Assembly (NCBI GenBank): GCA_020631995.1
Contig: JACKGJ010000001.1
Span: forward strand, 161,753-225,752
Origin: Candidatus Nomurabacteria bacterium
GTDB lineage: Bacteria > Patescibacteriota > Minisyncoccia > Phycocordibacterales > UBA918
Direction of reading: 5' to 3'
DNA: 64,000 bases
Shown piece after piece: positions 2,920 through 61,212 of this stretch. The notes under the pieces were generated by a model. The model worked only from the letters and a program-made list of their open reading frames with translations. It was not told where the DNA came from and made no database searches. A program made the translations under genes and the position numbers. Each line of letters opens with the position of its first letter. Position 1 is the first letter of the stretch.

Positions 2920-2920
2920 A

Positions 2921-3038
2921 GCTTCCAAAATCAGGTAAATTCTAGGGCTTCAGAAATTTTGCTCGTCACCGTATGTCTATATACGGCTCGCTCACAAAAT
3001 TTCCTCCAGTCCGTCGAATTTCCTCTAATTTTGAAAGC
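2921..3038 (-). repeat. Structured intergenic hairpin element R1 (subfamily II)
   Basis: Starts 2 nt after the rplT stop and ends before terminator 3045-3073. Positions 2965-2999 are the exact reverse complement of 11661-11695. Outer stem is 2921-2931/3028-3038. Confidence 0.75.
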
Positions 3039-3044
3039 TTTAGC

Positions 3045-3073
3045 AAAACCCCGCGCCACTGGCGCGGGGTTTT
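3045..3073. terminator. Bidirectional intrinsic terminator (rplT / MBL gene)
   Basis: AAAACCCCGCGCC act GGCGCGGGGTTTT. Confidence 0.8.
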
Positions 3074-3108
3074 GTTATTTGTTATTACTATTACTATAGG
3101 ACTGATAC

Positions 3109-7905: not shown

Positions 7906-8145
7906 ATGAAGACAAAAATCCAAAAATGGGGCAATAGCCTGGGAGTACGTTTGCCTAAAAGTATCACAGAACAAAAGGCTCTCCGAGCCGGACTTGGTGT
8001 TTCAATTGTGATTAAGGACAATCAAATCGTTATCGAGCCAAGAGAGGAGGAGTTATCACTGGAGTCTATGTTATCGACCGTATCAGCAGACAATATTCAC
8101 AAGGAAACTGACTGGTCCAAGGCTCAAGGAAATGAAGTATGGTGA
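7906..8145 (+). CDS. mazE: AbrB/MazE-family antitoxin
   Basis: MKTKIQKWGNSLGVRLPKSI SpoVT/AbrB swapped-hairpin motif; overlaps the toxin gene by 7 nt. Confidence 0.85.
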   Translation: MKTKIQKWGNSLGVRLPKSITEQKALRAGLGVSIVIKDNQIVIEPREEELSLESMLSTVSADNIHKETDWSKAQGNEVW

Positions 8146-8483
8146 ATAAAGTCTATATTCCAGACAGAGGAGACTTGGTGTGGGTTGACTTCAACCCTAC
8201 TCGAGGTAAGGAGCAGGCAAAAGTACGACCTGCTATTGTATTGTCCCCCAAAGCCTATAATCAAAAGATTAGCCTAGCCATCATGTGCCCTATTACCTCG
8301 GTTCAAAAGAACTACCCTTTTGAGGTGGTAGTGAGTGATAAAAAAGTGTCAGGAGTAATTTTGTCAGACCACGCTAGGTCACTTGACTGGAAGGCGCGAA
8401 ATACAAAATTTATTGCCAAAGCAAAACCAAGCGTAATCGCAGAAGTCCAAACAAAACTCGGACTTCTTGTTTGTGGTAAGTAG
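8139..8483 (+). CDS. mazF: MazF/PemK-family endoribonuclease toxin
   Basis: PDRGDLVWVDFNPTRGKEQAKVRPAIVLSP, the typical PemK N-terminus. Confidence 0.85.
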   Translation: MVNKVYIPDRGDLVWVDFNPTRGKEQAKVRPAIVLSPKAYNQKISLAIMCPITSVQKNYPFEVVVSDKKVSGVILSDHARSLDWKARNTKFIAKAKPSVIAEVQTKLGLLVCGK

Positions 8484-8492
8484 CAAATCAAA

Positions 8493-8529
8493 CAAAAATA
8501 GAACGGGCTAATTGCCCGTTCTATTTTTG
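8493..8529. terminator. Bidirectional terminator (mazF / secY transcript ends)
   Basis: CAAAAATAGAACGGGC taat TGCCCGTTCTATTTTTG. Confidence 0.8.
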
Positions 8530-8543
8530 TTTTAAATTAGTGA

Positions 8544-8699
8544 AATTGGATGCAGTTTCCTACTTAGATTCTGGGTGAGGATTTTTGGATGCAGTTTCGT
8601 CAGCTGGAAGGAGCTTTGCGACGGAGACGTAGGCGAACTACGGCGACCAAGCAAAGCGGCTGAAGCTGGCGGAAATGCGCCAAAAAGACCAGCCAGAAT
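8544..8699 (+). repeat. Structured intergenic hairpin element R2 (subfamily I) with an extra 5' half-copy
   Basis: GGATGCAGTT at 8587 pairs with AAATGCGCC at 8673. Outer stem is ATTCTGG 8568 / CCAGAAT 8693, abutting the secY stop. A second GGATGCAGTT lies at 8548. Confidence 0.75.
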
Positions 8700-10557: not shown

Positions 10558-11232
10558 TTAGGCTTTTAACTGTTTTAACGCTTCGACAGTAGCGCGGGCG
10601 TTGTTAAGCTTGTTCTTAGTTCGTGAAAGAAGCTTAGCTGTAACATCCTTAACGCCGGCCAATTCGAGAACAGTACGCGCAGAACTACCAGCAACCAGAC
10701 CACGACCAGGGGCTGGCATAATCATCACGCGACTAGAAGATAGCTTCTTTTCAACATCGTGAGCGATATGACTGTGTTCGTTCATCGGTACAGTAATCAT
10801 ATGCTTACGAGCGTCACGTACAGCTTTTTCAATAGCGAGCTGAGTGTCACCAGCCTTACCGATACCAACTCCCACTCGACCTTTCTTGTCTCCAATCACC
10901 ATTGATACAGAGAAAGAGAAACGACGTCCTCCACCCATAACACGAGTTACGCGACGGATAGAAATGATTTTCTGCTCAAACTCAGGTCGAGCGCGTTCGC
11001 CACGACCTCCAGCACCACGACGTGGTCGACGAGGATTACGACGGTCATTTGATTCTCCTCCCCTTCCACCTCTACCGCCCTGACCACGAGAACCACCAAA
11101 ACGAGTGGCTGGCTCTGTAGCTGGAGCAGTTTCTGCAGGTGCATCGGCAGTAGCAGTATCTGCTACTTTGTTTGTACCAGCCACTACATCTGTTGTAGGG
11201 TCGGTGACAATTTTAGCTTCCTGTTTTTCCAT
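10558..11232 (-). CDS. rpsE: 30S ribosomal protein S5 with a roughly 70-aa Ala/Thr- and RGG-rich N-terminal extension
   Basis: S5 core (IISIRRVTRVMGGGRRFSF..) preceded by a low-complexity region. Confidence 0.9.
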   Translation of the reverse strand: MEKQEAKIVTDPTTDVVAGTNKVADTATADAPAETAPATEPATRFGGSRGQGGRGGRGGESNDRRNPRRPRRGAGGRGERARPEFEQKIISIRRVTRVMGGGRRFSFSVSMVIGDKKGRVGVGIGKAGDTQLAIEKAVRDARKHMITVPMNEHSHIAHDVEKKLSSSRVMIMPAPGRGLVAGSSARTVLELAGVKDVTAKLLSRTKNKLNNARATVEALKQLKA

Positions 11233-11251
11233 AAATAAATTTGTGTTTTAA

Positions 11252-11605
11252 CTAGAATTTTAATCCTCCTTCGCGCGCTGCATCAGCCAAAATGGCGATG
11301 GCTCCCTGATAACGGAATCCTCCGCGGTCAAAGACCACCTTCTCGATTCCTTTACCAGTAGCAACCTTCGCAAGCTCAGTACCGAGGGCTTGAGCGCGCT
11401 CCAACAAGTTCTTACCTTTCTGCTTTCGAGTATCGAGAGCGGCAACAGTAACGCCGGCGCTATCATCAATAAGCTGGGCGTAAAGGCCGGTATTACTCTT
11501 GAAGACGGCCAAGCGAGGCTTCTCGCTGGTACCAATCACTCGAGCACGAATACGATTGTGTCGTGATACGCGGCGAGCTGTCTTTAGTTGTGTTTTAGTT
11601 TTCAT
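11252..11605 (-). CDS. rplR: 50S ribosomal protein L18
   Basis: RHNRIRARVIGTSEKPRLAVFKSN..FDRGGFRYQG. Confidence 0.95.
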   Translation of the reverse strand: MKTKTQLKTARRVSRHNRIRARVIGTSEKPRLAVFKSNTGLYAQLIDDSAGVTVAALDTRKQKGKNLLERAQALGTELAKVATGKGIEKVVFDRGGFRYQGAIAILADAAREGGLKF

Positions 11606-11626
11606 ACACCTTGTGATTTAAACTTA

Positions 11627-11734
11627 GGAAATTGGATGAAATCCGACGGGCTGGAGAAAGTTTTGTGAGCGAGCCGTATATAGACATACGGTGACAAGCA
11701 AAACTTTTGAAGCCCTAGGATTTCGCCGATTTCA
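11627..11734 (+). repeat. Structured intergenic hairpin element R3 (subfamily II) between rplF and rplR
   Basis: GGATGAAATCC...GGATTTCGCC middle stem. The 35-nt core 11661-11695 is identical (reverse complement) to 2965-2999. Confidence 0.75.
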
Positions 11735-11740
11735 TATTGT

Positions 11741-12274
11741 TTAAACAGCTTTCTTACCTTGCTTACGAATAATATATTCACCCTGATAGCGAATACCCTT
11801 GCCCTTGTAAGGCTCTGGCTTCTTCACCTTGCGTACGTCAGCCGCAAATTGGCCAATGGCTTCCTTGTCGACTCCCGTTACTGTCACGACACCCTTTTCT
11901 ACCACTACGTTAACTCCCTCAGGAATCTCTTTTTCTACCGGATGAGAGAATCCCATAAGAAGTACAAGCTTGTTGCCTTTCACTTCAGCACGGTAACCGA
12001 CTCCTTCGATTTCTAAAACCTTTTTGAAACCTTCGGTAACTCCGGTCACCATATTGCGAGCGTGCGCAGCGTAAGTACCCCACAGGGCCTTAGCTACAAC
12101 ACTACCCTCTTTTGGAGAGAAGGTAATAACGTTCCCTTCCATCTTAAGTTCAACATCATCTTTAATCTCGCGAGACAAAGAAGTGTTTCCCTTTTTCACA
12201 GTCAAGATACCACCTTCGAAAGTAGCTTCGACGCCGGCTGGCAGTATTACTGGTTGTTTTCCTAATCTAGACAT
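11741..12274 (-). CDS. rplF: 50S ribosomal protein L6
   Basis: MSRLGKQPVILPAGVE..; ATG at 12274 preferred. Confidence 0.95.
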   Translation of the reverse strand: MSRLGKQPVILPAGVEATFEGGILTVKKGNTSLSREIKDDVELKMEGNVITFSPKEGSVVAKALWGTYAAHARNMVTGVTEGFKKVLEIEGVGYRAEVKGNKLVLLMGFSHPVEKEIPEGVNVVVEKGVVTVTGVDKEAIGQFAADVRKVKKPEPYKGKGIRYQGEYIIRKQGKKAV

Positions 12275-12276
12275 AA

Positions 12277-12663
12277 TTACCAAATCTTAAACAACTGTTC
12301 GCCACCGACCTTTGCCTCACGAGCCTCACTGTCAGTGAGAATACCCTTTGGGGTAGAGAGGAAAAGATGGCCTTTGCCGAACTTGACTGGATAAATTTCT
12401 TCGACCTTAGCGTACAAACGACGTCCAGGCTTGGACACACGCTTCACATCACTAATGATGTGCTTGTCTCCTTCATACTTGAGGGTTACCTCAAGAGTTT
12501 TCTTTACGTCTTTGCCCTTAGTCTCAACTGCAGTTAGGTAACCAACAGCAGCAAGCTTCATAGCAATTGCTTCCTTTAATTTTGAGTGCGGGACAGACAC
12601 AACTGTATGTCCGACCGCTCCGGCATTCTTAAGCCGGATGATGAAATCTCCAATGTTATCCAT
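12277..12663 (-). CDS. rpsH: 30S ribosomal protein S8
   Basis: DNIGDFIIRLKNA.. Confidence 0.95.
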   Translation of the reverse strand: MDNIGDFIIRLKNAGAVGHTVVSVPHSKLKEAIAMKLAAVGYLTAVETKGKDVKKTLEVTLKYEGDKHIISDVKRVSKPGRRLYAKVEEIYPVKFGKGHLFLSTPKGILTDSEAREAKVGGEQLFKIW

Positions 12664-12676
12664 ATATGCTTAAGAA

Positions 12677-12862
12677 TTACCAAGAGCTCTTTTTAACTCC
12701 TGGGATAAGTCCCTCGTGCGCGTGCTCTCGAAAACAAATACGACAAAGATCGAAATCTCGCATATATCCATGCTTACGACCGCATTGAACGCAACGGCGA
12801 ACAACCCGACTCTTGTACTTTGGGGTACGCGTAGCGCGTACGATTACTGATGTTCGAGCCAT
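12677..12862 (-). CDS. rpsN: 30S ribosomal protein S14, type Z (zinc-binding, 61 aa)
   Basis: [23 protein letters not shown] with two CxxC pairs. Confidence 0.95.
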
Positions 12863-13096
12863 TTATTTTTTAGGGTTTAGGAAGTAGAAGTTGGAGATTG
12901 AGAGTATATATCGGCAAAACCGCATACATACCCCTCACTCTTAACTCCTCTCCCCTCTTTTTCAGAGTAGTATCGGCTAGATGTGCCGACTTGCTCTGCT
13001 TATAAACAGGGTCCTGGGACCCCTATGAAGTGCCGCCCAAACAGGCATCTATCGGCAAGTCATATTGCTCGCAACATTACCAGAATTTGGGTAAAA

Positions 13097-13130
13097 GTAA
13101 AGCCCCGCGCCAATTGGCGTGGGGCTTTAC
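13097..13130. terminator. Hairpin terminator immediately after rplE, inside the spc cluster
   Basis: GTAAAGCCCCGCGCC aatt GGCGTGGGGCTTTAC, 15 bp with one G.T. Confidence 0.65.
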
Positions 13131-13145
13131 TTAATTGTAAAAAAT

Positions 13146-13694
13146 TTAGGTCGCTACTTCTTCCTTCTGTAACGGAAGTCCTATGTGACGCAAAAACGCT
13201 TCAGCTTCAGTCTTAGTCTTAGCTGTAGTCACAATAGTAATAGCGAGTGAGAAAACATCGCGAATATCTTCGTCGGCGGTCTCAGGGAAAATAGTATGTT
13301 CCTTGATACCGAGAGTGATGTTACCCATATCATCAATTGCGGTAGTCTTAAGGCCACGGAAGTCACGAGTCTGAGGAAGAGCGATATGAATCAACTTATC
13401 GAAAAAGTGATGCATTCGTGCTCCGCGTAAAGTTACTTGGTAACCAATGATGTCACCCTCACGAAGTTTGAAAGACGCAATAGATTGCTTAGCTGGACGT
13501 GGAGATGGCTTCTGGCCAGTGATTTGTGCTAAACGATTGAAGATGGCTTCCTTTTTAGCCTTGTCTTCGATTTTTCCAATACCAACTGACACCACTACTT
13601 TATCTAGTCGTGGAGCCTGCATTACATTGGTGTATCCAAGACTTGACTTCAAAGCCTCAAATGCACCGTCTAGTTTTTCCTTTAGAGTTTTCAT
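13146..13694 (-). CDS. rplE: 50S ribosomal protein L5
   Basis: Position and L5 motifs (NVMQAPRLDKVVVSVGIG). Confidence 0.95.
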   Translation of the reverse strand: MKTLKEKLDGAFEALKSSLGYTNVMQAPRLDKVVVSVGIGKIEDKAKKEAIFNRLAQITGQKPSPRPAKQSIASFKLREGDIIGYQVTLRGARMHHFFDKLIHIALPQTRDFRGLKTTAIDDMGNITLGIKEHTIFPETADEDIRDVFSLAITIVTTAKTKTEAEAFLRHIGLPLQKEEVAT

Positions 13695-16758: not shown

Positions 16759-16860
16759 AAAATCAATGAGATGCAAGGCGGATGAGGAAAATAATGCGAG
16801 GTGAACTTAACGTTCAGAGAGCTTTATTTTCCGACATCCAACGTAGCAGGTCGTGATTTA
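16759..16860 (+). repeat. Structured intergenic hairpin element R4 (subfamily III) in the rplB-rpsS spacer
   Basis: Core 16784-16832 is GAGGAAAATAATGCGAGGTGAAC..GTTCAGAGAG..TTATTTTCC. It resembles 29378-29429 and 28628-28661. Confidence 0.7.
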
Positions 16861-17037
16861 AACTGACTTCTAAGTCAGAAGCCCGTGTGGATGAAGGTAA
16901 CGGCCTACCCCACACGAGTTCCCGACAAGTAGTGATTTGAGCTGTGCCGACCCGCCCTGCCAGGGGCTTTCGGGCATCAGTTCGGAACGGGGGCTATAGT
17001 ACGGGATTCGGTAGAAAAAGTCAACTAAATACATAAC

Positions 17038-17073
17038 AAGAAAACCCGCAAGCTTTTGCCTGCGGGTTTTCTT
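17038..17073. terminator. Hairpin terminator directly after rplB, inside the S10 cluster
   Basis: AAAACCCGCAAGC tttt GCCTGCGGGTTTT with A/T flanks. Confidence 0.7.
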
Positions 17074-17095
17074 GTCTAGAACTCAAATCTTGAGT

Positions 17096-19875: not shown

Positions 19876-20757
19876 TTAAACACCGATGCTGAACCGTACA
19901 TAAATCCCTGTTGGCAAAACTCGGTCGGAGGATGATTCTTTAATGTTCAGTGAACCAAAGGTGCCAGACGCTTTACCAAAAACACTTTCTACCGCTTGGG
20001 CAAATGATTCAGGAGCGAAGCCGGCGGCGTAACCAGAGAGAACCACGAATGAGCCGGGTTTCTCTGAGAGAATCTCTTTCAGATTCTTAAGGAGCGGGAC
20101 CAAATCATTTTCAATATGCCAGACCTGACCTTTAGCACCACGGCCAAAGGCTGGTGGATCTAAGATAATGCCGTCATACTTGGCTCCACGTCGCACCTCA
20201 CGCTTCACGAAGGCAGCGGCGTCGTCCACTATCCAGCGTACTGCATCATCAGGCAACTCACTCGCTTTAGCGTTCTCGCTCGCCCATTCCATTGATTGTT
20301 TAGAAGAATCAACGTGGGTCACTTTGGCTCCAGCGAGAGCGGCAGCGAGTGTGGCGGCACCCGTATACCCGAATAGGTTAAGAACACTTGGTGACTCTCC
20401 TCCCTTCTTCATATCCTTAACTTTTTCCATTATCCAAGTCCATTGACTGGCATGTTCTGGAAAAAGTCCGACGTGCTTGAAAGAAGTAAAATGAAGTTTG
20501 AAAGTGAGGTCTGCAAAATCTACCTGCCAATCAACAGGAGTGTCATCGTGAAGCGTCCACTTACCGTCCTTTGCTTCAGAAGTGAATTTGGCTTGAGCGT
20601 CTGACCATAAGTCGGACTTCAAAGGCATCCATATAGCTTGAGTATCTGGTCTATCGGTCGTGATTTTACCAAAACGCTCCAACTTACGACCATTACCTGA
20701 ATCAAGTAATTCGTAGTCGGGCCAAGATTTAGTTGTGATATCTTCTTTCTTCAACAT
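19876..20757 (-). CDS. Class I SAM-dependent (RlmI/RlmK-like) RNA methyltransferase
   Basis: VLNLFGYTGAATLAAALAGA SAM-binding motif I and ILDPPAFGRG motif IV. Confidence 0.7.
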   Translation of the reverse strand: MLKKEDITTKSWPDYELLDSGNGRKLERFGKITTDRPDTQAIWMPLKSDLWSDAQAKFTSEAKDGKWTLHDDTPVDWQVDFADLTFKLHFTSFKHVGLFPEHASQWTWIMEKVKDMKKGGESPSVLNLFGYTGAATLAAALAGAKVTHVDSSKQSMEWASENAKASELPDDAVRWIVDDAAAFVKREVRRGAKYDGIILDPPAFGRGAKGQVWHIENDLVPLLKNLKEILSEKPGSFVVLSGYAAGFAPESFAQAVESVFGKASGTFGSLNIKESSSDRVLPTGIYVRFSIGV

Positions 20758-20760
20758 AGT

Positions 20761-21519
20761 TTATTTGAGATGGTCAGGGTTCTGTCGACTCCACTCATAG
20801 AAAACGACTGCTCCTGAGACGGCAGCATTCAATGACTCAGCGCGAGTATGCATCGGGATAGAGAGCTTATAATCACAAAGCTCCAGGGACTTTTCGCGGA
20901 TTCCTCCACCTTCGTTCCCCACTACAAACACACTTGGTCGGTCAAATTTTGTTTCTGTTAGTTTCTCCCCTTCCATATCAAGCCCATAAATCCAAAAACC
21001 ACGTTCCTTTAATTCACGAAGGGTTTGGTTAACGTTTCCAACTGACACTACTGGAATCTTAAACACCATTCCAACTGAAGTTTTTACTACTGTGCCGGTA
21101 ATTGGCGCCTGTCTGTGCTCTGGGATAATCACACCAGAGAGACCAAGGGCAGCGGCCGAACGAATGATGGCCCCAAGGTTATGTGGGTCTTGCACCTCAG
21201 CACAGACTGCGATAGCTGGATTCTTTGTTACATCAATATTCTCCAGAAAAGTCTTTAGATCAGTCACTAAGGCTGTGGTGTTTAATATACCGATTACACC
21301 TTGGTGAACCGCGTTTTCACCAACTGTTCGGAGCTCGCCTCCACCGAGTGGTTTTACAGAAATATTGTTAGCAGTGGCTAATGCTACAATCTCTTTTTCC
21401 TCCTCAGGCCTTTCTAGAAACACGTTCTTAATAGCCTTTGGCTTATGACGAAGCGCCTCCGTCAGGGAATGACGGCCGTAGATATAGACTTTGTCGCTTT
21501 TTACTTTATCCTTTTTCAC
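20761..21519 (-). CDS. TrmH/SpoU-family 2'-O-ribose RNA methyltransferase (RlmB-like)
   Basis: SpoU motifs (DPHNLGAIIRSA, VVGNEGGGI, LNAAVSGAVVFYE). The ORF extends to 21579, but the GTG at 21519 (VKKDKV..) fits the family N-terminus. Confidence 0.75.
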   Translation of the reverse strand: MKKDKVKSDKVYIYGRHSLTEALRHKPKAIKNVFLERPEEEKEIVALATANNISVKPLGGGELRTVGENAVHQGVIGILNTTALVTDLKTFLENIDVTKNPAIAVCAEVQDPHNLGAIIRSAAALGLSGVIIPEHRQAPITGTVVKTSVGMVFKIPVVSVGNVNQTLRELKERGFWIYGLDMEGEKLTETKFDRPSVFVVGNEGGGIREKSLELCDYKLSIPMHTRAESLNAAVSGAVVFYEWSRQNPDHLK

Positions 21520-21596
21520 CTGTGCAATATAACACAATGAATAAAATGCACACGCTAGAGGTTGCAATTTTGGCGACACAGGTAGATTATGCAGTT

Positions 21597-21867: not shown

Positions 21868-21895
21868 TGCAACTGGCAACACTAAACTTTTCTGT

Positions 21896-22020
21896 AAATC
21901 TTAAGAAATGGGATGCAGTTGTATTGGTTGGAGGAATTTTGACGACGGAGCCTTAGTTGACCTAAGGTGACCGAGACAAAATTCCGAAACCAGTGCAAAT
22001 GCGCCGATTTCTTAAGATTT
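21896..22020 (+). repeat. Structured intergenic hairpin element R5 (subfamily I), 3' of rpsJ
   Basis: A 14-bp perfect outer stem (21896-21909 / 22007-22020) overlaps the rpsJ stop codon. GGATGCAGTT is at 21911 and AAATGCGCC at 21997. The central hairpin is GGAGGAATTTTGACGACGGAGCCTTAG..CTAAGGTGACCGAGACAAAATTCC. Confidence 0.8.
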
Positions 22021-22390: not shown

Positions 22391-22465
22391 ATATTTGTTT
22401 TTCAATTTCAAACTTTCTCAAATTGGATATCGAGCCAAGAAAGCTCAGTGCCAACTTGGTAAGCT

Positions 22466-27939: not shown

Positions 27940-28524
27940 ATGATAATCGGAATTGCTGGACCAACAGCCAGTGGTAAAACCACTATAGCGAGAATGCTTG
28001 AAGAAGAGTATGGAGCAGTGCGTCTGCGTTATTCGAGTATTCTCTCTGAAATGGCCGTTGAACGTGGCCTCGACCCTGATGATAAAGCTACCCTCCAAGG
28101 ACTTTTTCTGAATGAGCGCGAAACACGTGGCGAAGACTTCCTAACCAAGGAAATGGAGGAGCGCGTAGAGAGACTCGATAAAGACTTCATAGTGATTGAA
28201 GGTAATCGCCGACTGGTAGACATTGATACTCTACGCCGTATTGCTACGACTCGTAGTGACTCACTCAACCTCCTTTTTATCGACGCATCTCGTGAAACTC
28301 GTTTTGACCGATACAATGAACGCTTGGTTTCCCAAGGAGAAGAACCGATTTCATTTGAGGAGTTCACTGCACTTGAAGCCAATGATGCTGAAGACGAAAT
28401 CGACGACCTAAAGACAATCTTCGAGAAAGAGGGTCTGATTATTAACACTGACGATCAGAATGCGGAAGCTGTGTTTAAGGAAATCAAAATCCTCCTCACC
28501 AAAACAGAAAAACTGACTCCCTAG
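27940..28524 (+). CDS. P-loop nucleoside/nucleotide kinase-like protein (CoaE/uridine-kinase-like fold)
   Basis: MIIGIAGPTASGKTTIARML Walker A at the extreme N-terminus; family assignment tentative. Confidence 0.55.
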   Translation: MIIGIAGPTASGKTTIARMLEEEYGAVRLRYSSILSEMAVERGLDPDDKATLQGLFLNERETRGEDFLTKEMEERVERLDKDFIVIEGNRRLVDIDTLRRIATTRSDSLNLLFIDASRETRFDRYNERLVSQGEEPISFEEFTALEANDAEDEIDDLKTIFEKEGLIINTDDQNAEAVFKEIKILLTKTEKLTP

Positions 28525-28582: not shown

Positions 28583-28707
28583 GAAAACTGCAAAATTTAG
28601 ATGAATCACGAGGCGAACAAGAAAAAAGACCCGAGGTGAACTTGATTGTTCATCGAGGGTCTTTTTTCGCAGTTCAACAAAGTGAGTCGCTAAATTCTGC
28701 AGTTTTC
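28583..28707 (+). repeat. Structured intergenic hairpin element R6 (subfamily III) whose centre doubles as a terminator, 3' of rpsG
   Basis: An 18-bp outer stem (28583-28600 / 28690-28707, one mismatch) abuts the rpsG stop. The centre is AAAAAAGACCCGAGGTGAAC ttgatt GTTCATCGAGGGTCTTTTTT. Confidence 0.75.
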
Positions 28708-29177: not shown

Positions 29178-29238
29178 AATGTTCTTTCGTTATCTAAAGC
29201 GAGATACTTAATAATTTTAAAAGGCGGAAACTGTCTAC

Positions 29239-29339
29239 AGTTGTCACCTTTAGAGGAGAATTCACGAGTGAGACGTAGTCAACCTACGACGACTAGTGGA
29301 TTCTCCAAAAAGGAGGCAAATTGTGCTTTTCTCACAACT
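29239..29339 (+). repeat. Structured hairpin element R7a in the rpsL-rpsG spacer
   Basis: GGAGAATTCAC (29255) / GTGGATTCTCC (29296) form an 11-bp stem around GAGTGAGACGTAG tcaac CTACGACGACTAG. Outer pair is AGTTGT/ACAACT. Confidence 0.65.
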
Positions 29340-29352
29340 TTCAAGAAGTAAG

Positions 29353-29457
29353 AAATTGGATGGAGAGCGAGACGTGCGAGGAAAATAATACGAGGTGAAC
29401 TTCAATTGTTCAGTGAGTATTATTTTACCGAAGCACAACGACGCCATCCGCCAATTT
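29353..29457 (+). repeat. Structured hairpin element R7b (subfamily III), abutting the rpsL stop
   Basis: AAATTGG/CCAATTT outer stem and GGATGG/CCATCC pair. Core 29378-29429 is GAGGAAAATAATACGAGGTGAAC..GTTCAGTGAG..ATTATTTTACC. Confidence 0.75.
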
Positions 29458-29458
29458 A

Positions 29459-29869
29459 TTATTTCTTGGGTGCTTTGGTTCCGTAACGTGAGCGCGACTG
29501 CATACGCTTGTCTACTCCGGTCGCATCGTACTTACCACGTACCACGGTGTAGTTAACACCAATGTCTTTCACACGACCACCACGGACCAATACTACGGAG
29601 TGCTCCTGGAGAGTGTGCCCGATACCTGGGATGTAGGCAGTGATTTCTTGTCCGTTGGTAAGACGTACACGAGCAATCTTACGAATAGCAGAGTTTGGCT
29701 TACGAGGAGTCTTAGTAGTGACACGAGTACAAACTCCACGCTTAAACGGTGAGTTGTATTCGTTAGGACGATTCTTGATCTTATCGAAACCAGACGACAA
29801 AGCAGCCACTTTGGTTTTGTGAGCTGGGTCGCGACGTCGCTTCTTAATTAGTTGTTTTATTGTTGCCAT
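29459..29869 (-). CDS. rpsL: 30S ribosomal protein S12
   Basis: [29 protein letters not shown]. Confidence 0.97.
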
Positions 29870-30868: not shown

Positions 30869-31111
30869 ATGGCAAAAGTATGTCAAATCACTGGTAAGTC
30901 CACCCAAGTTGGTGGCCGCTACTCAAACCGCACTCGTGCGACGCAGTTTAACCCTTGCGGCAAAGTTCGTCGTGCTCCAAACATTCAGAAGAAGCGTATC
31001 TTCGTTCCTGAAATTGATAGCTTCGTAACTATCAACGTTTCTACCAAAGGACTCCGAACTATGAATAAGAATGGTGCATATAAGACTCTCAAGGAAGCAA
31101 AACTTATCTAA
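30869..31111 (+). CDS. rpmB: 50S ribosomal protein L28
   Basis: MAKVCQITGKSTQVGGRYSNRTRATQ. Confidence 0.9.
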   Translation: MAKVCQITGKSTQVGGRYSNRTRATQFNPCGKVRRAPNIQKKRIFVPEIDSFVTINVSTKGLRTMNKNGAYKTLKEAKLI

Positions 31112-31233
31112 ATCCCTGAAATCGGCGCATTTGTACTTGCTTCAATCGAAGCTCTCCCGCGCCGTATAATCAAATACGTCTTGGTCAAGATTCTCCTTCC
31201 AGCAAGCACAACTGCATCCAATTACAGAAATTT
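31110..31233 (-). repeat. Structured intergenic hairpin element R8 (subfamily I, inverted), 3' of rpmB
   Basis: The + strand shows GGCGCATTT (31124) ... AACTGCATCC (31210), the reverse complement of the R5 ends. The outer stem 31110-31118 / 31225-31233 overlaps the rpmB stop. Confidence 0.8.
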
Positions 31234-31254
31234 AAAGTTTAGTTAAACAATCTA

Positions 31255-44490: not shown

Positions 44491-44596
44491 AGGAAAATTG
44501 TATCACGCTTTACTGGCAAAATTCCCAAACGACAAAGCTAGGTGCTCATTTTGGAGTTTTGTGCCTCCTTTTTCCTCCTAGCACTGGTTCGCTTTG

Positions 44597-44742
44597 CTCA
44601 CAACGCGTTTCCTGACTCAGGTCAGGACCGGAGGGAACAAGAAACTATTCTTGTTCTGCCCACCTAACGCTTGCTCGTTTCACTCACAACGCGTTTCCTG
44701 ACTCAGGTCAGGACCGGAGGGAACAAGAAACTATTCTTGTTC
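44597..44742. repeat. Tandem duplication (two 60-bp near-identical units, 86-bp period) carrying nested palindromes
   Basis: Positions 44597-44656 and 44683-44742 are identical. Each holds AACGCGTT, CCTGAC tcag GTCAGG and a GAACAAGAA acta TTCTTGTTC hairpin. Confidence 0.85.
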
Positions 44743-46218
44743 CCTCCACTCGATGAACTGATAATTATCAGAAGTCTTTGGGGTCAAAGGTGGTGGGTCG
44801 ATAGCTAGGTCACGGTCATAGTAGTCGTAGCGATACTCAAAGCCATTGCAGTACACACCTCCGGAGCATACCCATTTAGTACCAACGCGACCATTCGAGA
44901 CCACTGTTCCATTAGTGGTCAGTGAATTGCGGTACATATAGTCACTCATCGAATTTTGAATGCGCACGTAATCAGGATTAGAATCAGCAGAGTTACTATT
45001 ACTAACATAGTAGTATGGCCGATGGAACTTTCCTTTCTGCGCCAAAAAAATACCGTTTATCGACATATTATCTGGTACATCTAGACCAATATTGATGTTT
45101 TCTTCGGCGATTAGTAGGAGGCCTGAGTCTTCATTAGCATAAGTGAGGTTACCAACAATAACTACTCTTGGATCTGTCGTGGAGTCAGGTGCGGCAGCGG
45201 CAACTGTCACTCGTCCATTTATCACGCCCTCCACCCACACATTGTCCTCAAAGAAAATAACACTACAAGAAGAAGGTATAGAGTACGTCCCCACTGTCGT
45301 TGCACTGTTCAAAAAGTTTTTACTGTGACCCCAAGCATTACCTTTGGCCTTACTCGACTTTGCCTTTTTTAGTGTATATGTACCATTTGAGTTAAATACA
45401 ACATAATAACCAGCCTCACCGGAAGGTCCATAGTATTGACCACCTGAATTGGTAGCACGATCTTTTATGTCAGAAAGGTCTACCGTTACTCCTGTGAAAC
45501 TAACTGGTGGTACAGACCATTGCCACAAATCAGAACCATCCCCGTCACCAAACACTCCATTGACACTGGTCCAATTACTAGCAAATTGTGGACTTGCAGT
45601 ACAAATATCAAGGTAGTAGCACCATGAGCTCGTTTGTCCGCTAGTCACTTTAGAGTTATTGAGTCCATCCATACGCACAAAGCCATTGGAATGATATGGT
45701 CCATAGATAATACGATCAGGACCGGCCCAGACATTGGCATTAACGATGTGTGAGAACTCTGCTACGTTGGGCCTAGCATAACGAGCATAGACTATTCTTT
45801 CTATATTTGGTTCTTTGGTTGTATAACCTGTCGAAGTAATATCAATAGAAGTCACCGCTCCACACGCTAGGTTGCCATCCACCTCCAAAGAATACTCCCC
45901 AATTACATCGCCCTCTGGGTCACTAAACGGAACTACATAAGGGCCAGCTTCTCCAGTACCGTTTTGGATATCATCAGGATGGTGAGCTAGAAACCATTTG
46001 TAGTAGTTAAGCCCAGCCTCTGCAATTTGAAGGGCTTGCTCACTATTTAATTTGGCATTAGATATTTTCGAGCCAGTAATAGTAAAACCCATAAAGGCTG
46101 TAAAAATAGTGAAGAACACGGCCCCAAACACTAAGAGTAATACCACTAAGTAGCCCCTAGAAAGATTATGGTTCGCTACTTCGTTGTGTTGATCTGAACT
46201 TTTAAATTTAAATGTCAT
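44731..46218 (-). CDS. PilX-like / pilus-associated protein with an N-terminal hydrophobic anchor (495 aa)
   Basis: N-terminus ..SRGYLVVLLLVFGAVFF is pilin-like but lacks Glu5. Sits in the operon with the prepilin-like genes. Confidence 0.55.
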   Translation of the reverse strand: MTFKFKSSDQHNEVANHNLSRGYLVVLLLVFGAVFFTIFTAFMGFTITGSKISNAKLNSEQALQIAEAGLNYYKWFLAHHPDDIQNGTGEAGPYVVPFSDPEGDVIGEYSLEVDGNLACGAVTSIDITSTGYTTKEPNIERIVYARYARPNVAEFSHIVNANVWAGPDRIIYGPYHSNGFVRMDGLNNSKVTSGQTSSWCYYLDICTASPQFASNWTSVNGVFGDGDGSDLWQWSVPPVSFTGVTVDLSDIKDRATNSGGQYYGPSGEAGYYVVFNSNGTYTLKKAKSSKAKGNAWGHSKNFLNSATTVGTYSIPSSCSVIFFEDNVWVEGVINGRVTVAAAAPDSTTDPRVVIVGNLTYANEDSGLLLIAEENINIGLDVPDNMSINGIFLAQKGKFHRPYYYVSNSNSADSNPDYVRIQNSMSDYMYRNSLTTNGTVVSNGRVGTKWVCSGGVYCNGFEYRYDYYDRDLAIDPPPLTPKTSDNYQFIEWREQE

Positions 46219-48673: not shown

Positions 48674-48861
48674 CTAAAACTTTTAAAAGTGGATGCACCA
48701 CACGGGCACTTCCGTTTTCATAGTCGAGCAAGCTCTCCTTGAAAACTAGGTCGCAGTTGTGCTGGTTGGAGGAATTTTGGCGACAGAGCCTTAGAACAAA
48801 CTAAGGTGACCAAGACAAAATTATGAAACCAGTGCAAATGCGCCACTTTTAAAAGTTTTAG
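48674..48861 (+). repeat. Composite structured hairpin element R9 (subfamily I with an internal insertion), 3' of pilC
   Basis: A 17-bp perfect outer stem (48674-48690 / 48845-48861) overlaps the pilC stop. GGATGCA is at 48691, GGTCGCAGTT at 48749 and AAATGCGCC at 48836. The core closely matches R5 by eye. Confidence 0.8.
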
Positions 48862-52409: not shown

Positions 52410-53804
52410 ATGTTTGACTTAAAGGTAATTCACTCCGTTTTAACGGAAATGGAAGAAGAGCGTGGAATTCCACGTGAGCGTATGATGGAGGCGATTGAAC
52501 AATCACTCGCCACTGCATACAAGAAAGAGTTCGGGAAGCGCGGGCAGATTATTCGTGCCAAATTTGATATATCCGCAGGCACAACAAACTTTGAACAAGT
52601 GAAGATTGTTGTGGACGATACAATGCTCAAGTCTGATGAAGAGGTAGAAGAGGAGGTAGAAGAAAGAGAGACCCATCGTAAGGACTATCATAAGGAAGAA
52701 GAAGTATTGATTCCTTCAGAAGATCGTAAGGTTCGTTTTGACCCAGAAAAGCATATTATGATTGATAGTGCTCGTCTGATTAAGAAAGACGTCACCCTTG
52801 GTGAGGAACTAGTTTTTCCGCTTGAACCTAAAGACGACTTCGGACGTATCGCAGCTCAAACTGCAAAACAGGTCATTATTCAGAAAGTACGCGAAGCAGA
52901 AAAGGATGCTGCTATCTCTGAGTTTGGTCAGAAGGAAGGGGATATTGTGATGGGGCACGCTCAACGCTTTGAACGTGGCAATCTTTATGTAGACCTTGGT
53001 CGCATCACTGCCATAATGCCTTATGAAGAACAAATCCCTGGGGAACGTTTCAAGCCAGGAGAAAGAATCCGTGCCCTCCTACTACGAGTAGAAGAGACAT
53101 CACGTGGTGTTTTCGTTAAACTCTCTCGCTCACACCCAGAATTTCTTTCTGCGCTCTTCGCTATTGAAGCGCCTGAACTACAAACTGGTGCTGTTGAAGT
53201 AAAGGCCATTGCTCGCGAAGCAGGAAGCCGTTCTAAAATTGCTGTTGCCTCTCGAGATCAGCACCTAGACCCTGTCGGCTCTCTGGTTGGACAACGTGGT
53301 GTACGTGTATCTACCGTAATGAGCGAACTAGGTGGTGAAAAAATAGACATCATCGAATGGTCAGAAAAGCCGGTTGAGTTTATCGAAGACTCACTTTCCC
53401 CTGCTCGCGTATTGTCAGTTAAGATTGAGTCCGAACCAGATGCAGAGACAGGTACCCACGGACACGCCACAGTTGAAGTAGCTTCTGATCAGCAGTCTTT
53501 GGCTATTGGACGTGGCGGACAGAACGTTCGTTTGGCTGCCAAGTTAACTGGCTGGAAAATCGACATTGTCTCTCAGAAAGGTGAAGAGTTAGCTGAAGCT
53601 GATGCTGAGGAAGTGAAAATTGCAGAGCTTCCAGTAAAAGAACCAACCGCAGAGGAAGTAGAAACACCTAACATTGGCGAGGTAGAGACTGTTGAGACCG
53701 AGGCAGATGAGCCGACCAAAGACCGTGATAAACTCGACATTGATGAAGCTGACGAAGTAGACACTCCAGAGGAAGCTGAAGAAAATCTTAATGATTCCAA
53801 ATAG
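52410..53804 (+). CDS. nusA: Transcription termination/antitermination factor NusA (acidic insertion and acidic C-terminal tail)
   Basis: NusA N-terminus, then S1 and KH motifs (GERIRALLLRVE.., GQRGVRVSTVMSELGGEKIDI, GRGGQNVRLAAKLTGWKIDI). Confidence 0.92.
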   Translation: MFDLKVIHSVLTEMEEERGIPRERMMEAIEQSLATAYKKEFGKRGQIIRAKFDISAGTTNFEQVKIVVDDTMLKSDEEVEEEVEERETHRKDYHKEEEVLIPSEDRKVRFDPEKHIMIDSARLIKKDVTLGEELVFPLEPKDDFGRIAAQTAKQVIIQKVREAEKDAAISEFGQKEGDIVMGHAQRFERGNLYVDLGRITAIMPYEEQIPGERFKPGERIRALLLRVEETSRGVFVKLSRSHPEFLSALFAIEAPELQTGAVEVKAIAREAGSRSKIAVASRDQHLDPVGSLVGQRGVRVSTVMSELGGEKIDIIEWSEKPVEFIEDSLSPARVLSVKIESEPDAETGTHGHATVEVASDQQSLAIGRGGQNVRLAAKLTGWKIDIVSQKGEELAEADAEEVKIAELPVKEPTAEEVETPNIGEVETVETEADEPTKDRDKLDIDEADEVDTPEEAEENLNDSK

Positions 53805-60923: not shown

Positions 60924-61094
60924 TTGGGCACGGGGAATCTACCCGGAATAGCGGCTACTTTGCTTCATTTCATTCGCAAACTAGGCTCGCTTTCCTGGTC
61001 GGCGCCTCCTCGTTTCTTCTCTTTGGAAGGAGAAGAAACATCGTCCGGCGCTTCGATTCCCGACGCAAGACACGCAGGTGTCTTGCTTGCCCGC
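60924..61094 (-). other. Degenerate, expanded tRNA-Gly-like unit or tRNA 3'-end duplication
   Basis: On the - strand it starts with GCGGGCA, which is the tRNA-Gly 5' acceptor strand. A 10-bp hairpin has loop CTTCCAAA, containing the tRNA-Gly anticodon-loop heptamer. It ends with GATTCCCCGTGCCC, 14/14 identical to the tRNA-Gly T-arm and acceptor 3' part. Confidence 0.4.
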
Positions 61095-61148
61095 ACTGCA
61101 TATGAAAAGCCGCCCTTTAGAGGGCGGCTTTTCATATGCAGTGCGGGC
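61089..61148. terminator. 27-bp perfect palindrome (terminator) that includes the 3' acceptor strand of tRNA-Gly
   Basis: GCCCGCACTGCATATGAAAAGCCGCCC tttaga GGGCGGCTTTTCATATGCAGTGCGGGC. Confidence 0.7.
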
Positions 61149-61212
61149 ACGGGGAATCGAACTCCGATATTCTGCTTGGAAGGCAGACGTTTTACCACTA
61201 AACTATGCCCGC
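61142..61212 (-). tRNA. tRNA-Gly (anticodon UCC), CCA not encoded
   Basis: Hand-folded cloverleaf: acceptor GCGGGCA/TGCCCGC, D stem GTTT/AAAC, anticodon stem TCTGC/GCAGA with loop CTTCCAA, and T arm CGGAG TTCGATT CCCCG (one A.C mismatch). Confidence 0.88.

Follow-up and report, generated by a model that had tools for sequence, protein, structure and literature searches.

How do two spacers beside unrelated ribosomal-protein genes come to share 35 identical nucleotides in opposite orientation? The question is raised by a 64-kb stretch of DNA (64,000 nucleotides, 44% GC (0.444), hereafter the window) from contig JACKGJ010000001.1 of Candidatus Nomurabacteria bacterium, assembly GCA_020631995.1, in which an earlier note had described two copies of a structured element, one between rplF and rplR and the other 3′ of rplT. 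Judged from the sequence, both are members of a dispersed family of ~125-bp imperfect palindromes peculiar to Paceibacteria-type bacteria of the candidate phyla radiation (CPR), and they are paralogous, given their 85% identity, their unrelated flanks and the way in which subfamilies cut across insertion sites. It is a new family of small palindromic interspersed repeat: we found no published account of such repeats in CPR bacteria.

The 35-mer TTTTGTGAGCGAGCCGTATATAGACATACGGTGAC occurs exactly twice in the window, at 11661-11695 on the + strand and at 2965-2999 on the - strand, as the earlier note had stated. No third occurrence is found in the window when three mismatches are allowed, and dinucleotide shuffles yield 0 matches. 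The 35-mer stands at the centre of a longer inverted match of 113 nt, between 11620-11732 and 2928-3040 read in reverse complement, with 85% identity. In both copies the 35-mer takes in the 7-bp stem at the apex, the loop of that stem and the purine-rich internal loop beside it. The full elements, copy a at 11617-11740 and copy b at 2920-3043, reach slightly further than they had first been drawn. We call motif strand the better-folding strand of an element, which starts GAAATTGGATG; it is the + strand in a and the - strand in b. A covariance model built from eight copies of the repeat, R1, scores copy a at 125.8 bits on + against 32 on -, and copy b at 110.3 bits on -, and both copies fold. 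They belong to the same subfamily, subfamily II.

Copy a lies between rplF (L6; 11741-12283, -; stop codon 11741-11743) and rplR (L18; 11252-11605, -), which begins 12 nt past it. The TAA stop of rplF falls within the outer stem of copy a (GTTTAAAC ... GTTTAAA), and the mRNA, which corresponds to the - strand, carries the complement of the motif strand. Copy b starts 1 nt past the stop codon (2917-2919) of rplT (L20; 2575-2919, +) and ends just ahead of a canonical intrinsic terminator, a hairpin with T runs on both sides (3041-3077, +); since this terminator stands downstream of it, b is in the 3′ untranslated region (UTR) of rplT. Gene identities in the window were assigned by Pfam, and for L20 (+), L6 (-) and L18 (-) they bear out that each copy is flipped together with its neighbouring gene. 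Outside the elements we found no similarity between the flanks of a (rplF/rplR) and those of b (rplT and the terminator): in BLAST searches with 161-nt queries, similarity ends at the element borders.

Comparison of both copies on the consensus structure shows that 30 of the 38 pairs are identical and eight differ. Six of these eight are double changes that preserve the pair, and the other two are single changes that break it in b. The three pair swaps quoted in the earlier note are all real and belong to these six, namely, in the GAAAGUUUUG stem, an A-U replaced by G-C and a G-C replaced by A-U, and in AAAUCC/GGAUUU a C-G replaced by U-A. At the unpaired positions inside the hairpin, a and b differ at one site out of 31.

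R1 finds seven copies of this imperfect hairpin of ~125 nt in the window, a density of one repeat per ~6 kb, and 52 copies (E<1e-10) in the window together with 42 loci (numbered with the prefix L) that were gathered by exact-protein look-ups and one degenerate-pattern scan of GTDB genomes. Part of the subfamily II set was collected with patterns demanding the core and is hence a biased sample. The SecY protein of the window has 100% identity to one labelled Ca. Nomurabacteria and 98% to one from Ca. Kaiserbacteria. Matches of the GTDB scan come almost exclusively from metagenome-assembled genomes of Patescibacteria; no copies were found in the viral contigs scanned, and a metagenome scan with the subfamily II core returned only three loci. 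Besides a and b, the window copies are c, of the c/d subfamily (21894-22018, +; 125.3 bits), directly past the stop of rpsJ (S10); d (48732-48857, +; 109.7 bits), directly past the stop of a pilC-like T2SS-F gene; e (31111-31236, -; 109.8 bits), directly past the stop of rpmB (L28, +) and flipped with its gene like b; f (8570-8694, +; 104.8 bits), 5 nt past the secY stop; and a divergent copy between rpsL (S12) and rpsG (S7) (29216-29340, +; 58.4 bits). Copies within a genome are 60-85% identical to each other. Element GC ranges from 0.33 to 0.56, mostly 0.40-0.46, compared with 0.444 for the window; the elements are not A+T-rich relative to the genome, and none contains a conserved open reading frame (ORF). 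Rfam 15 at gathering thresholds matches a single tRNA in the whole window; at E<=10, copy a matches nothing and copy c gives only a chance Leu_leader match (19 bits against a cut-off of 50). A hairpin ribozyme or another small ribozyme was rejected, there being no Rfam match.

Pairing is conserved throughout the family. In the alignment of the 52 copies, 92.9% of the cells are standard pairs and 33 of the 38 pairs have changed on both sides, counts that come from a model-fitted alignment of related sequences, so that the double changes are not independent events. None of 500 shuffles reaches the observed values, and sliding the partners gives 36-46% pairing. The hairpin is maintained through compensatory changes, with a signal far beyond the controls, and the earlier description of a and b as a subfamily of a structured repeat with compensatory changes extends to copies whose orientation is fixed as well. 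The most conserved positions are unpaired: an internal loop of 5′-GGA-3′ opposite 5′-GA-3′, and the purine-rich GAG...UGA around the 5-7-bp apical stem. The outer stem and the termini are the least conserved part, yet they stay paired with copy-specific sequence. A K-turn or sarcin-ricin reading of the GGA/GA loop was rejected in a hand check, the K-turn register moving the next 10-bp helix by 2 nt.

The two strands of the palindrome are not equivalent. With RNA energies the motif strand folds better than its complement in nine of nine window copies, including three hairpins of a distant type (type III, see below), and this is still so with DNA parameters. Fold energies are -56.3 against -41.4 kcal/mol for a and -52.9 against -40.7 kcal/mol for b; the sense strand folds weaker by 13-23 kcal/mol in the six main-family copies and by 6-12 kcal/mol in the three type III hairpins. 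Across the family, G·U cells on the motif strand number 171 versus 25 for A·C, and they are spread over 24 of the 38 pairs. Furthermore, GC skew on the motif strand is +0.23 (in 52 of 52 copies) and AT skew +0.11, and purines make up 74% of its unpaired positions. We rejected a mutational origin of this G·T asymmetry: deamination tied to transcription or replication, acting on the non-template or the lagging-template strand, predicts wobbles on the sense or leading strand, and the skews at fourfold-degenerate sites, together with the GC skew of the window, go the way of deamination or are neutral. Indeed, at fourfold-degenerate sites of the sense strand T exceeds A and G is about equal to or below C, with no excess of A or C. 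Because such a sense-strand excess is absent, the asymmetry is taken as selection on the folded motif strand, and we read the structure as conserved by selection on the strand complementary to the transcript, not on the mRNA strand. Of the earlier note, then, the structured hairpin stands, and the strand on which selection keeps its structure is the complement of the one folded there.

Position and polarity are as constrained as the structure. We looked, in 53 non-redundant copies, for an open frame of at least 120 amino acids ending between -25 and +12 nt from the element, a test that misses small genes such as the one in L042 where a copy sits on the rpmI stop codon. A qualifying frame end was found for 33 of the 53 copies (mode 0-1 nt), always antisense to the motif strand and in 0 cases on it. 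Their stop codons are TAA in 27 cases, TAG in 5 and TGA in 1, where the background counts are 195, 104 and 79. The outer stem has the stop codon as its opening triplet: the sense strand reads 5′-TAAAC...GTTTA-3′, and a TAG stop covaries with ...CTA, TAGAC pairing with GTCTA. In most copies the terminal motif of the sense strand is 5′-TAAACTTCC...GGAAGTTTA-3′, that is, terminal inverted repeats (TIRs) with TA ends, and the next start codon follows 5-20 nt past the element.

Six copies that the frame test had left unassigned lie in rRNA operons, and in each of them the motif strand is again the antisense one with respect to the rRNA. They lie ~20 nt past the 23S 3′ end (L024 1846-1970, L026 351-474, L015 6523-6628 and L027 1246-1351), downstream of a 23S match and before 5S (L016 1931-2055), or 150 nt past 16S (L029 4250-4375). 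L024 is labelled Anaerolineaceae though it bears a CPR-type repeat, and may be a mis-binned contig. In total, ~40 copies have one polarity relative to transcription, the exceptions being a divergent copy from a distant genome (L040), which looks reversed, and a copy between divergent genes (L038). Within one region of constant GC skew, b and e are turned round together with their genes, so polarity follows transcription and not the chromosome strand; the same flips led us to reject an orientation determined by replication. A guess that dnaA/oriC lies at the gene-strand switch was ruled out by a NusA gene at 52410. The operons that hold copies are str, S10, spc, tuf, infC-rpmI-rplT and, in relatives, rRNA. 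A terminator scan does not call the elements, which stand inside operons (rplF-rplR, rpsL-rpsG, 23S-5S), while b has its separate canonical terminator, and consensus scans of the flanks revealed no promoter for the motif strand that is consistent across copies.

The identity of the a and b cores can be examined in related strains. Between 11310 and 11833, only 14 differences, all packed in 11669-11705, separate L003 and L004 from the window, and L002 carries the window allele of the copy a core. This pattern is that of a conversion tract of at most ~45 nt over the apical module alone. In the window the apical loop of a is that of b, and b-type arms elsewhere (the rplT copy of L042 and the tuf copy of L054) carry another loop. 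Because subfamily II arms bear different cores in L010, L051 and L040, arms and core are separable modules; subfamily II arms with the same or nearly the same core are found in several genomes. Copy b is a plausible donor of the window allele of a, and a donor of the L003 core allele is absent from the window and from all loci screened. The 35-nt identity is, on these comparisons, best explained by within-genome exchange between copies on top of constraint, so that constraint accounts for it only in part. The six compensatory arm differences would be older, since other genomes have arms of the a-like as well as of the b-like kind. Over 10975-13437 the strains compared (L002, L003, L004) are mosaic, L002 being identical to the window over 11208-11851 and ~6% diverged in rplF and beyond, which suggests frequent homologous recombination between strains.

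Comparison of orthologous sites indicates that they gain, lose or swap copies between related species. In L005, whose secY is 91% identical to that of the window at the nucleotide level, the site after rplF holds a c/d-type element instead of the subfamily II copy a, and the same site is empty in L008 and L010. Copy b is absent after rplT in L005 and has an orthologue after rplT in UBA6201 (L042). The rplC-rplD spacer, empty in the window, is filled in L005. After rpsJ, the window has a c-type and L054 an f-type element, and after tuf the window keeps a 56-nt remnant (22410-22465) with both ends (AGCTT... / ...GAGAAAGTTT), which match a full subfamily II element at the same site of L054, showing that the centre was deleted. 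On the other hand, the site after secY, where the window has copy f, is also occupied in L005, by an orthologue, and in L008, by a diverged one, and the site after the SIMPL gene is occupied in L008 and L010. The empty sites compared (rplF-rplR and rplC-rplD) are too divergent in the spacer to set the borders of the element. Two direct repeats of 7 nt, TTTAAAC in a and AAGCTTT in b, were considered as target-site duplications and rejected as shared element ends; AAGCTTT is an element end because b and the L042 and L054 copies begin identically.

We favour, with about an even chance of its being right, the explanation that the repeat is a small non-autonomous mobile palindrome of the kind of MITEs (miniature transposable elements with inverted repeats), repetitive extragenic palindromes (REPs) or ERIC, of which one folded strand is active and whose cores are shuffled by gene conversion. 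The active form would be the folded bottom (template) strand as single-stranded DNA (ssDNA), and a structure-specific enzyme would recognize the conserved loops and the apex, as integron integrases do on attC sites or HUH/RAYT proteins on REP hairpins. Insertions would be tolerated by the host solely where a gene or RNA has just ended, and in that orientation which leaves the weaker, A·C-mismatched hairpin to the transcript; there the element may be a passive or mildly useful intercistronic or 3′-UTR hairpin. The identity of the a and b cores would then come from core exchange and core constraint, and the arm differences would be older substitutions separating two arm lineages.

Several observations weigh against this explanation, in addition to the relatedness of the sequences behind the pair counts. 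It is from the strand asymmetry alone that we infer an ssDNA stage, and the data would also suit a bottom-strand RNA. Neither the 64-kb window nor the neighbouring loci that were annotated contain a gene for a transposase, an integrase or an HUH protein. A cognate autonomous insertion sequence (IS) was likewise missing from the window and from loci L005-L011, which were annotated with Pfam, and a search for solo arms flanking an ORF, or for a longer element with the same ends, gave only noise and known fragments in the loci screened. Contigs of the same species (L005/6/7, L008/9 and L010/11) show no presence/absence differences, and copies within a genome are so far apart in sequence that they show no trace of a recent burst. 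TA is found at both ends in about half of the copies, and, being self-complementary, it is indistinguishable from an extension of the stem; many copies extend the palindrome with non-TA bases (for example TCATTGACA...TGTCAATGA and CCTCGGCGA...TCGCCGAGG). Finally, termini that are least conserved and internal loops and apex that are most conserved are the reverse of what a TIR element bound by its transposase would have.

A different explanation would dispense with mobility: the repeat could be a cis-acting RNA of the host, working in the sense transcript as a processing site, as a barrier that gives stability against RNase III, RNase Y, RNase J or 3′ exonucleases, or in translational coupling by holding the stop codon before it near the start codon after it, and spread and homogenized by recombination rather than transposition. 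We consider it possible, although rather unlikely. Copies are always within transcription units, 0-1 nt past stop codons and 5-20 nt before the next Shine-Dalgarno sequence or start, and others lie just past the 23S and 16S ends, where processing occurs. The genome encodes RNase J and RNase Y, the sites after secY and SIMPL are occupied across species, and ERIC has orientation-dependent effects on mRNA stability (PMC2229807). Moreover, the sense-strand mRNA hairpin folds far better than shuffles (z of -5.8 for a and -7.2 for b). However, selection on this RNA predicts G·U pairs on the sense strand, and the opposite is found; a stabilizer would be expected to use the stronger strand, whereas the sense strand is the one that folds weaker. 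Orthologous sites are also empty in relatives with no obvious compensation.

The attC sites of integrons offer a close parallel to a mobile palindrome active as a folded strand. They too are imperfect palindromes of similar length located just 3′ of an ORF, in which structure prevails over sequence, and in both cases better folding, an excess of G:T mispairs and purine-rich unpaired positions belong to the strand complementary to the ORF (Nivina et al. 2016, PMC5027507). In attC sites, which lie immediately 3′ of ORFs, it is the bottom strand that is recombined; folded bottom strands have 1.24 G:T mispairs versus 0.39 on the top strand, and are purine-rich (PMC5027507). Many copies of the repeat also have AAC...GTT near their ends, as attC sites do; copies without it include b (AAAGC) and c (AAATC). 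On the other hand, the repeat has no R box of the form RYYYAAC/GTTRRRY, its ends being (Y)TAAAC and GTTTA(R), with one extra A. In place of the 5-6-nt unpaired central spacer that separates the R and L boxes of attC, copy a has 4/5 nt unpaired after a 7-bp outer stem, and in copy c and others, such as that of L036, the stem is continuous. The extrahelical bases of the repeat are a conserved 1-nt bulge and, in the GGA/GA loop, the surplus base; both are found in the 5′ arm of the motif strand, where its AAC also lies, whereas attC has such bases in the arm across from the AAC triplet of the strand that recombines (PMC5027507). Unlike attC, the repeats are dispersed in ribosomal-protein and rRNA operons and form no cassette array beside intI and attI, and no recombinase is present in the window. 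The attC parallel is an analogy of mechanism and not family membership.

A comparable likeness is found with REPs and with REPINs, hairpins of ~100 nt: these are abundant extragenic palindromes at gene ends, whose mobility is thought to act on folded single strands and whose populations evolve within the genome (PMC3116915, PMC3733652). REPs are, however, 20-40 bp long with a terminal GTAG or CGTC tag, and a REPIN consists of two inverted REPs, whereas the repeat is a single interrupted stem of ~55 bp, with arms that are not palindromic themselves and no terminal tag. GTAG is present only inside the apical stem of some subfamilies (CGTAG), others having CGTAT or CTTAG. Copies are far more diverged than those of a REPIN population, and no RAYT gene was seen in the annotated parts of the window and of the scattered loci. 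Class C group II introns insert after intrinsic terminators, and some IS elements target REP or attC hairpins. These 3′-end-homing elements resemble the repeat in their oriented, apparently structure-guided insertion just past genes; they are autonomous and encode enzymes, unlike a 125-bp non-coding hairpin.

These parallels leave room for a bolder proposal, which we make tentatively and hold to be a minority possibility: the repeats could be a new class of structure-specific ssDNA sites in CPR bacteria, with a recombinase or nuclease that recognizes the folded template strand of the dispersed hairpins, homes them in one orientation to the first nucleotides past a stop codon or rRNA end, and swaps apical modules between copies. 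Such a system would be analogous but unrelated to attC, would have no described relative, and would operate inside the most conserved operons of a minimal genome.

If the bottom strand acts as RNA, it could be a polar terminator or insulator against antisense transcripts (a strong hairpin followed by AUUUUGG..UUU), with sense polymerase reading through the mismatched hairpin, or else a cis-antisense small RNA. The asymmetry itself, the purine-rich loops typical of structured RNA on the motif strand, the U-rich tract after the main stem, and a polarity that tracks transcription and not the genome strand (b and e being flipped with their genes) would all be accounted for. We nonetheless judge it unlikely: the motif strand is preceded by unrelated gene starts and by no conserved promoter, in f-type copies the stem is followed on both strands by A tracts instead of U tracts, a 55-bp stem far exceeds what a terminator needs, and the genome already has canonical GC-rich terminators.

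Bacterial MITEs are shorter than 200 bp, carry TIRs and terminal TA, and are transcribed into long stem-loops (PMC2229807). Among them, ERIC/IRU, Correia/NEMIS and RUP share with the repeat a length of 100-170 bp, a non-coding and dispersed nature, one long imperfect stem-loop, TA termini and a location in transcribed intergenic space, where they are co-transcribed with flanking genes (Delihas 2008, PMC2229807); ERIC-class MITEs also resemble it in having filled and empty sites that differ between relatives, and in orientation-dependent effects of ERIC on mRNA (PMC2229807). In contrast to ERIC-class MITEs, the repeat is fixed to the nucleotide at the stop codon in an essentially invariant orientation, its termini are the least conserved part, and its structure is kept on the strand whose sequence is absent from the gene's transcript. 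Neither a target duplication nor a transposase is demonstrable for it, and its host is a CPR bacterium, with a genome that we take to be ~1 Mb from our own estimate for the group.

A classical cut-and-paste MITE, moved as double-stranded DNA, of an IS630/Tc1-like transposon, which duplicates a TA target and survives only in the TA of a stop codon, with the terminal A or G of the element rebuilding TAA or TAG, would explain why occupied stops are enriched in TAA and TAG with TGA nearly absent, and why the sense strand ends as TA/AAC...GTT/TA in about half of the copies. Reconstructed empty sites are sensible for a, b, e and the rpsJ copy of L054, TA termini and targets are typical of MITEs, and RUP is linked to IS630-Spn1 (PMC2229807). 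Yet it would give no reason for compensatory evolution along the full length, for strand-specific G·T pairs or for termini that are the least conserved, and it predicts both orientations, whereas 0 reversed copies are found among the 33 gene-adjacent and six rRNA ones. Copies in rRNA spacers and elsewhere extend the palindrome with bases other than TA, and a transposase is missing from the window and the annotated loci; we see little likelihood in this explanation. Lastly, a recent segmental duplication, which the earlier note had distinguished from its own reading, or a chance match has nothing in its favour beyond the identity itself and can be set aside as next to impossible, given 0 chance matches, a similarity confined to the element between unrelated genes, and dozens of copies elsewhere.

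The window contains further elements related to the palindrome that we favour as mobile. Three type III hairpins, g (16759-16860, +; upstream of rpsS), h (28594-28700, +; past the rpsG stop codon) and i (29353-29460, +; past the rpsL stop codon and in tandem with the divergent R1-type copy), are distant relatives with the terminal motifs of the main family (GAAATTGGATG... / ...CGCCAATTT) and another centre (GAGG..TGAAC, loop GTTCA). A type III copy in L042 (3590-3712) is in the opposite orientation, just upstream of rpmI. An orphan 5′ arm of 30 nt (TTTAAATTAGTGAAATTGGATGCAGTTTCC; 8532-8561, +) adjoins copy f and a MazE/PemK toxin-antitoxin pair (7906-8561), which has its own terminator, lies on the opposite strand between the secY and adenylate-kinase genes, and is absent in L008 and L010. 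We considered that an element had been split around this module and rejected it, as the other half of the arm was looked for on the far side and not found.

Other features of the window stand apart from the family. The spacer that separates tpiA from an ORF of 495 aa lacking a Pfam match has an 86-nt unit in tandem duplicate at 44574-44745 (87% identical), each unit with two small hairpins. A perfect 29-nt inverted repeat with a 4-nt spacer (61088-61149) overlaps the last bases of a tRNA (61142-61212, -). Between rplB and rpsS, 16870-17095 (-) contains a terminator hairpin, a promoter-like site (TTGACT-17-TACTAT) and a GC-rich stretch of ~130 nt; this region has no convincing Rfam match and its fold is no better than shuffles (z of -1.2). 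Two methyltransferase genes (19876-21579) interrupt the conserved operon between rpsJ and rplC, and a kinase-like gene (27940-28524) on the opposite strand does so between rpsG and fusA.

CPR (Patescibacteria) genomes are considered streamlined. Should the family be real, its stop-codon precision, its invariant polarity and a structure kept on the non-sense strand would point to a structure- and strand-specific mechanism beyond known MITE biology, and the attC parallel suggests that strand-selective hairpin sites may reach beyond integrons. It would also affect gene calling, because stop codons are embedded in repeats, as well as operon and terminator prediction, and would bear on assembly and binning, as with the contig labelled Anaerolineaceae. 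The repeats could, finally, serve as a strain-typing marker in Paceibacteria.

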